Of a stretch of DNA of 64,000 nucleotides, positions 16,866 to 16,938 are shown in pieces; within the stretch, counting starts at the first letter, position 1; each line of letters opens with the position of its first letter. Below the pieces are notes generated by a model, which made no database searches, was not told the origin of the DNA, and worked only from the letters and a program-made list of their open reading frames with translations. This DNA comes from Escherichia coli (lineage in GTDB: Bacteria > Pseudomonadota > Gammaproteobacteria > Enterobacterales > Enterobacteriaceae): assembly GCF_051903065.1 (NCBI RefSeq), contig NZ_CP178438.1; one strand, written 5' to 3'. The position numbers and the translations under genes were made by a program.

Positions 16866-16938
16866 GAAAGACGCGCATTTGTTATCATCATCCCTGAATT
16901 CAGAGATGAAATTTTGGCCACTCACGAGTGGCCTTTTT
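16866..16938 (+). ncRNA. micA: MicA (SraD) small regulatory RNA
   Basis: gaaagacgcgcatttgttatcatcatccctgaattcagagatgaaattttggccactcacgagtggccttttt matches MicA as I recall it, ending in its terminator hairpin; sits between luxS and gshA. Confidence 0.85.

Follow-up and report, generated by a model that had tools for sequence, protein, structure and literature searches.

A micA gene identical to that of K-12 lies between luxS and gshA in an Escherichia coli chromosome with a LIG/HD-Pnk cassette across luxS

Results

Organization of the locus

We analyzed the surroundings of positions 16866-16938 in a 64,000-nucleotide stretch of Escherichia coli DNA, referred to here as the window, and collected the features of this region in Table 1. 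Gene names were taken from the annotation of the RefSeq record of strain 23CRST027, which aligns with window positions 11001-20000 without mismatches and with one gap. In that record, proX, an MFS transporter gene, ygaZH, emrR, emrA, and emrB are followed by genes annotated as 'RNA ligase family protein' and 'ATP-binding protein', then by luxS, gshA, yqaA, and yqaB, and finally by four tRNA-Arg genes, tRNA-Ser, csrA, alaS, recX, and recA. The tRNA genes form a tandem array at 19851-20575 (- strand), with four identical copies and one longer one (annotated as four tRNA-Arg and one tRNA-Ser in the identical RefSeq record) and unequal spacer lengths between the copies. Elsewhere in the window, upstream of the MFS transporter gene and just past an open reading frame at 7082-8122, Rfam identifies naRNA4, a REP-derived nucleoid-associated RNA (RF02564, 73.5 bits), at 8132-8209.

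Table 1. Features of the emrB-gshA region, in window coordinates.
Feature	Position	Strand	Basis and remarks
LIG, ATP-dependent polynucleotide ligase-like gene (235 aa)	14417..15124	+	PF09414 RNA_ligase, E 6.5e-28; motif EKLDGEN
HD-Pnk-type end-healing enzyme (370 aa)	15121..16233	+	AAA_33 over residues 226-355, E 3.5e-32
Terminator closing the cassette on the luxS side, bidirectional: HD-Pnk (+) and luxS (-)	16236..16277	both	Folding; replaces the K-12 emrB/luxS terminator
luxS (S-ribosylhomocysteine lyase), divergent from micA	16282..16797	-	Open reading frame; RefSeq annotation of identical DNA
micA sigma-E promoter (predicted)	16810..16865	+	Read from the sequence: AT-rich tract ~16810-16831; -35 TGAACTC 16832-16838; N16; -10 TCTGA 16855-16859; +1 G 16866
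micA gene (MicA sRNA, 73 nt)	16866..16938	+	RF00078 match; identity to K-12 b4442
MicA target-pairing region (nt 8-24), predicted	16873..16889	+	Predicted RNA duplex with K-12 ompA
MicA stem-loop 1 (nt 23-44)	16888..16909	+	MFE and centroid fold; Rfam consensus structure
AAUUUU single-stranded linker (nt 45-50)	16910..16915	+	Unpaired in fold; reported Hfq-protected site
Rho-independent terminator: 7-bp GC-rich hairpin 16916-16933 (nt 51-68) and U-tail	16916..16938	+	Terminator scan; fold
gshA (glutamate-cysteine ligase), convergent with micA	16947..18503	-	Open reading frame; annotation; 8 nt between its stop and the end of MicA
luxS distal P1 promoter (sigma-S type), inside gshA	17129..17168	-	Start G at -332 = 17129; mapped via primers KU40/KU41A (PMC2956633)

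The micA gene and its match to K-12

The original prediction, made from the sequence alone, had placed an intact MicA between luxS and gshA, divergent from luxS, and had proposed alignment with K-12 micA as a check. We found that the Rfam covariance model of MicA (RF00078, gathering threshold 41 bits) matches positions 16866-16937 on the + strand over its full length (model positions 1-75 of 75, 83.9 bits, E 1.4e-11), and that no other Rfam family reaches its gathering threshold in the micA region. The micA gene of K-12 MG1655 (b4442, a 73-nt ncRNA between luxS and gshA) maps onto 16866-16938, and in the alignment all 73 nucleotides are identical, so that the seed region carries no mismatch and the terminator is kept. 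With micA on the + strand and luxS on the - strand, the predicted location, integrity, and orientation all held. Identity to K-12 continues on both sides of the gene: all 171 columns of the alignment of 16790-16960, which includes both the luxS start and the gshA stop along with micA and the spacer, are identical, and the luxS-gshA spacer including the promoter shows 100% identity. Over the 1019 bp from the luxS stop to the 3' part of gshA there are 10 differences from K-12, none of them within 16346-16978.

Within luxS itself only three differences from K-12 occur (16285, 16318, and 16345), all of synonymous type and all in the last 64 nt beside the cassette. Beyond this cluster (16282-16345), 633 bp follow without any difference from K-12, and the cluster may mark a recombination breakpoint. 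In RefSeq/PGAP records with matching DNA, no feature is annotated over micA; an ncRNA feature is present only in the curated K-12 record.

Promoter, fold, and pairing region

As a sigma-E-type promoter we accepted a -35 GAACT and a -10 TCTGA separated by about 16 nt at the mapped start, and inspection of the sequence upstream of the micA start at 16866 revealed this arrangement. The promoter is identical to the K-12 micA fragment from -85 to -1, whose activity Udekwu and Wagner found to be strictly sigma-E dependent (PMC1851643). A sigma-70-like match inside micA on the - strand (16888..16859) was rejected, as such matches occur here at chance frequency (one found, 0.8 expected) and this one lies off the published short luxS start.

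The MicA RNA folds with a minimum free energy of -20.5 kcal/mol (z = -2.98), and none of 200 shuffled sequences was equally stable. In both the MFE and the centroid structure, a mostly open 5' part is followed by stem-loop 1, an unpaired linker, the terminator hairpin, and a U-run. The fold, the terminator scan, and the Rfam structure thus present the architecture of an Hfq-binding RNA, consisting of two stem-loops, an A/U-rich linker, and a Rho-independent terminator with a U-tail. The reported Hfq footprint on MicA covers the linker between the two stem-loops, with the U-tail as the likely second site (PMC4618604). The terminator hairpin, likewise predicted to be intact, was recovered by the terminator scan and the MFE fold as GGCCACU/AGUGGCC followed by a T-run; its hairpin also folds on the - strand, just past the gshA stop.

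To predict target pairing, we used the first 30 nt of MicA and the region from -40 to +15 of K-12 ompA, the ompA gene of this strain lying outside the window. MicA nt 8-24 pair with ompA -21 to -6 at a predicted -23.1 kcal/mol; shuffled sequences averaged -12.3 kcal/mol (sd 3.0), and 3 in 1000 did equally well. The paired ompA stretch takes in the ribosome-binding region, where MicA has been reported to act as an antisense RNA (PMC2956633). A duplex computed between full-length MicA and the entire ompA leader was discarded, since it consisted of an unrealistic 65-nt pairing that was not clearly above shuffles.

micA across E. coli genomes

In a sample of 5426 complete E. coli genomes, a 901-bp query around micA found matches in 5423 and was 100% identical in strains ECNB21-M121, 23CRST027, and 23CRST031. 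The 73-nt micA query matched at 99% identity or more in 5097 of the 5426 genomes and at 95-99% in a further 326, with any match in 5423, while promoter and gene taken together (149 bp) were covered to at least 80% in 5421. The gene is also identical in CFT073, which carries the cassette. Since micA is near-universal in E. coli, with or without the cassette, its retention beside the cassette is the expected outcome and unremarkable. The original prediction had described MicA as retained despite the neighboring insertion; the retention is real, but there was no risk to micA, as the cassette ends 585 bp away with the whole of luxS intervening.

An exception was met incidentally. The cassette-bearing clinical strain E. 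coli R13 (NZ_CP107151.1, 2960-3069 of the extracted locus) lacks 39 bp equivalent to window 16847-16885; the deletion takes out the first 20 nt of MicA together with its start site and sigma-E -10 box and leaves a residual Rfam score of 49.9 bits.

The cassette between emrB and luxS

Across luxS from MicA, where the original prediction had put an accessory cassette, we found two genes at 14417-16233, with the start of HD-Pnk overlapping the stop of LIG by 4 nt (15121-15124). Window positions 14161-16276 stand in for the 58-bp emrB-luxS spacer of K-12 (K-12 locus 2156-2213), terminator included, and homology to K-12 restarts at CTGAC, just ahead of the luxS stop. At its other end, past emrB, the cassette has a terminator of its own (14167-14190). 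The sequence EKLDGEN in LIG is the KxDG adenylylation motif, and the protein is 35% identical to the Deinococcus radiodurans homologue DR_B0100 over nearly its full length (E 1e-26). The HD-Pnk protein matches DR_B0098 of D. radiodurans end-to-end at 30% identity (E 2e-34). Its C-terminus is a P-loop polynucleotide kinase (GLPGMGKD) that matches the kinase domain of C. thermocellum Pnkp (PDB 4gp6); at its N-terminus HD motifs of the form H...HD (HHGEGD, LLHDVEK) are visible in the translation, and the Pfam HD model gave no match to the protein at E <= 0.01.

Neither cassette protein matched a defence-system model in PADLOC. Against PDB sequences, LIG gave hemocyanin matches only, which we judged spurious. 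Upstream of LIG (14160-14416), inspection by eye led us to accept neither a LexA box nor a sigma-E-type promoter; a lone TCTGA in this region was rejected as a sigma-E -10 element, its spacer from AACTC being 21 nt.

From its sequence, the cassette is a member of the described LIG/HD-Pnk end-healing and sealing module. The label 'RNA repair', under which it was originally predicted, is plausible for a ligase and HD-Pnk pair and may be taken as a hypothesis of function. The ligase of Runella slithyformis undergoes self-adenylylation but sealed none of the substrates with which it was tested (PMC6097658), and the homologous genes of Deinococcus have been linked to resistance against ionising radiation, which damages DNA (PMC6300522).

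Age and distribution of the cassette

The cassette (query 14160-16281) is present in 999 of the 5426 complete E. coli genomes, or roughly 18%. The allele of the window is rare, with at least 99% identity in 5 genomes and 95-99% in 976. Compared to the common allele of CFT073, it diverges by ~5% over 14250-15750 and by less than 1% over 15750-16250, a mosaic that suggests recombination inside the cassette. In the CFT073 assembly NZ_CP158446.1 (3258-3955 of the extracted locus), LIG is annotated as a frameshifted pseudogene and HD-Pnk is intact.

In a cross-species scan with one genome per species, the arrangement emrA-emrB-LIG-HD-Pnk-luxS-gshA recurred in four: Escherichia sp. MOD1-EC7003, Klebsiella spallanzanii, Enterobacter sp. 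BIGb0383, and Superficieibacter. All four have MicA in the luxS-gshA interval, and MicA was also detected beside the cassette remnant of E. albertii. In the three genera other than Escherichia, the cassette proteins show 70-86% identity, compared with 80-94% for the flanking genes. In E. albertii NBRC 107761 the cassette survives as a remnant (3931-4465 of the extracted locus), in which the sequence matching window 14201-15972 has been lost and the left boundary persists along with the final 88 codons of HD-Pnk; ahead of luxS, this genome has gained a REP-like element of roughly 145 bp. Because the cassette occupies the same site in four other species and has left a deletion remnant in E. albertii, its distribution indicates that it is an old, recurrent, variably lost, and sometimes decaying occupant and not a recent insertion threatening micA. 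The K-12 lineage may never have had the cassette or may have lost it.

Outside this site, the LIG/HD-Pnk pair is found in Serratia and Proteus away from emrB, luxS, and gshA, and Phytobacter-like genomes have emrB followed by the cassette without luxS downstream. A phage collection yielded one distant full-length relative of HD-Pnk, in an uncultured jumbo phage, and otherwise matches to the kinase domain only; we see no sign in these sequences that the cassette is phage-borne. Matches in a plasmid collection fell mostly on megaplasmids or on mislabelled chromosomes.

Conservation around emrB-luxS in other genera

Some of the chromosomes mislabelled as plasmids in that collection also allowed us to read what else lies between emrB and luxS. 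At this junction, Salmonella has a carbohydrate porin gene and the sRNA STnc260, K. pneumoniae an HTH regulator adjoining leuA, and E. hormaechei a transposase; luxS-MicA-gshA-yqaA-yqaB is unchanged in all three. Because its occupants differ between genera, emrB-luxS is a junction of variable content in Enterobacteriaceae, with luxS-micA-gshA fixed.

We also compared MicA itself among six cassette-associated genomes of 4 genera, in which E. albertii is represented with a cassette remnant only. The -35 and -10 promoter blocks do not vary among these genomes, and MicA nt 1-27 vary at one position only (G/A). Variation is found in the loops of stem-loop 1 and of the terminator. This pattern agrees with the published one (PMC4618604).

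Discussion

Our findings support the reading, to which we assign a probability of about 97% on sequence evidence, that positions 16866-16938 are the standard, already known micA gene of the E. coli chromosome, intact and in its usual place. We infer its expression, Hfq binding, and target regulation in this strain from the identity to K-12 together with published work on K-12 and Salmonella. Upon envelope stress, sigma-E RNA polymerase would initiate at 16866 from TGAACTC-N16-TCTGA and produce an RNA of 72-73 nt whose 3' end is formed by the GGCCACU hairpin with its U-tail. Hfq would bind the AAUUUU linker and the U-tail, and nt 8-24 would pair with the ribosome-binding region of ompA, thereby blocking translation and leading to decay of the mRNA; further target mRNAs of the 5' region would include phoP. 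In addition, MicA may act in cis on luxS mRNA via RNase III, long luxS transcripts being antisense across micA. The LIG/HD-Pnk cassette is an unrelated accessory module with its own terminators that leaves the luxS-micA-gshA unit untouched.

The cis relation could also be given the leading part. On that account, the perfect conservation of micA would be driven by its role as luxS 5' leader and as a hairpin past gshA, and MicA would here be mainly a cis-antisense RNA to luxS, which we consider unlikely although it fares best among the alternatives. The luxS P1 region inside gshA (17129-17168) is intact and identical to K-12, so that long luxS transcripts would run antisense through micA as they do in K-12, where transcripts from P1 (-332) cross micA and the processing of luxS mRNA depends on MicA and RNase III (PMC2956633). 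The terminator hairpin, moreover, forms on the gshA strand too, 8 nt past the stop. What speaks against a predominantly cis role is the pattern of conservation across genera, in which conservation is highest in the 5' pairing region and in the sigma-E promoter and the tops of the stem-loops vary, as would be expected of a seed that acts in trans; ompA and phoP are, furthermore, experimentally established trans targets of MicA (PMC2956633; PMC4618604). The cis and trans roles of MicA are compatible and do not exclude each other.

A functional coupling of the cassette to luxS and micA, for example by convergent transcription or by a new terminator that alters the 3' ends of luxS mRNA, seems very improbable. 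It is true that the K-12 terminator has been swapped for a stronger bidirectional one, which on the luxS strand (16236-16277, - strand) forms a hairpin followed by U7 at -26 kcal/mol (z = -5.4; -20.4 kcal/mol on the + strand), whereas the K-12 emrB/luxS terminator reaches -17.4 kcal/mol on that strand and has a poor U-tract, and that the only luxS differences from K-12 are gathered next to the cassette. However, this same strong terminator parts the two convergent units, other genera carry unrelated genes at the junction with MicA unchanged, and PADLOC gave no defence-system match for the cassette. Since the cassette of Proteus and Serratia lies elsewhere, its linkage to luxS is positional and not functional. 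One could still imagine that in the ~18% of strains with the cassette the terminator swap and convergent transcription affect how the 3' end of luxS mRNA is formed or how stable this mRNA is, and so shift the luxS/MicA cis-antisense balance, and AI-2 output with it, relative to K-12-type strains; this idea finds no support in anything measured, and we give it very little credence. Least credible is that micA is a relic, kept in sequence and silent in this strain: natural loss does exist, as the R13 deletion demonstrates, but the promoter, start, and terminator here are those of the expressed K-12 allele, and losses of this kind are very rare, no more than 2 of 5423 genomes having promoter and gene covered to less than 80%.

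The standard micA gene thus remains our preferred reading: a textbook gene in its textbook place, so that 16866-16938 calls for no further attention. Automated annotation would leave the luxS-gshA spacer blank, given the absence of micA from the RefSeq/PGAP records. As by-products of the analysis, the cassette can be named more precisely as a ligase and HD-Pnk pair, and the variability of emrB-luxS in Enterobacteriaceae has come to light.

Comparison with known systems

The cassette has its closest described counterparts in two LIG/HD-Pnk systems. The operon of Runella slithyformis has the same order, with the ligase gene upstream and overlapping the start of the open reading frame for the HD and P-loop kinase protein (PMC6097658); it also has Tpt1/MTase-HIT genes, which the cassette here does not. 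In Deinococcus radiodurans, a macro-domain/PARG gene lies between DR_B0100 and DR_B0098, whereas here the two genes adjoin without it. As for the small RNA, RybB and MicL differ from MicA in their loci and targets. They are the other sigma-E-dependent, Hfq-binding sRNAs and share with MicA the sigma-E promoter and the repression of OMP mRNAs (PMC4618604). With MicA (SraD) of K-12 MG1655, the gene described here has in common the RNA, the promoter, the flanks, and the synteny (luxS divergent, gshA convergent), and the two loci differ only in their background, which past luxS is a 58-bp spacer in K-12 and the LIG/HD-Pnk cassette here.
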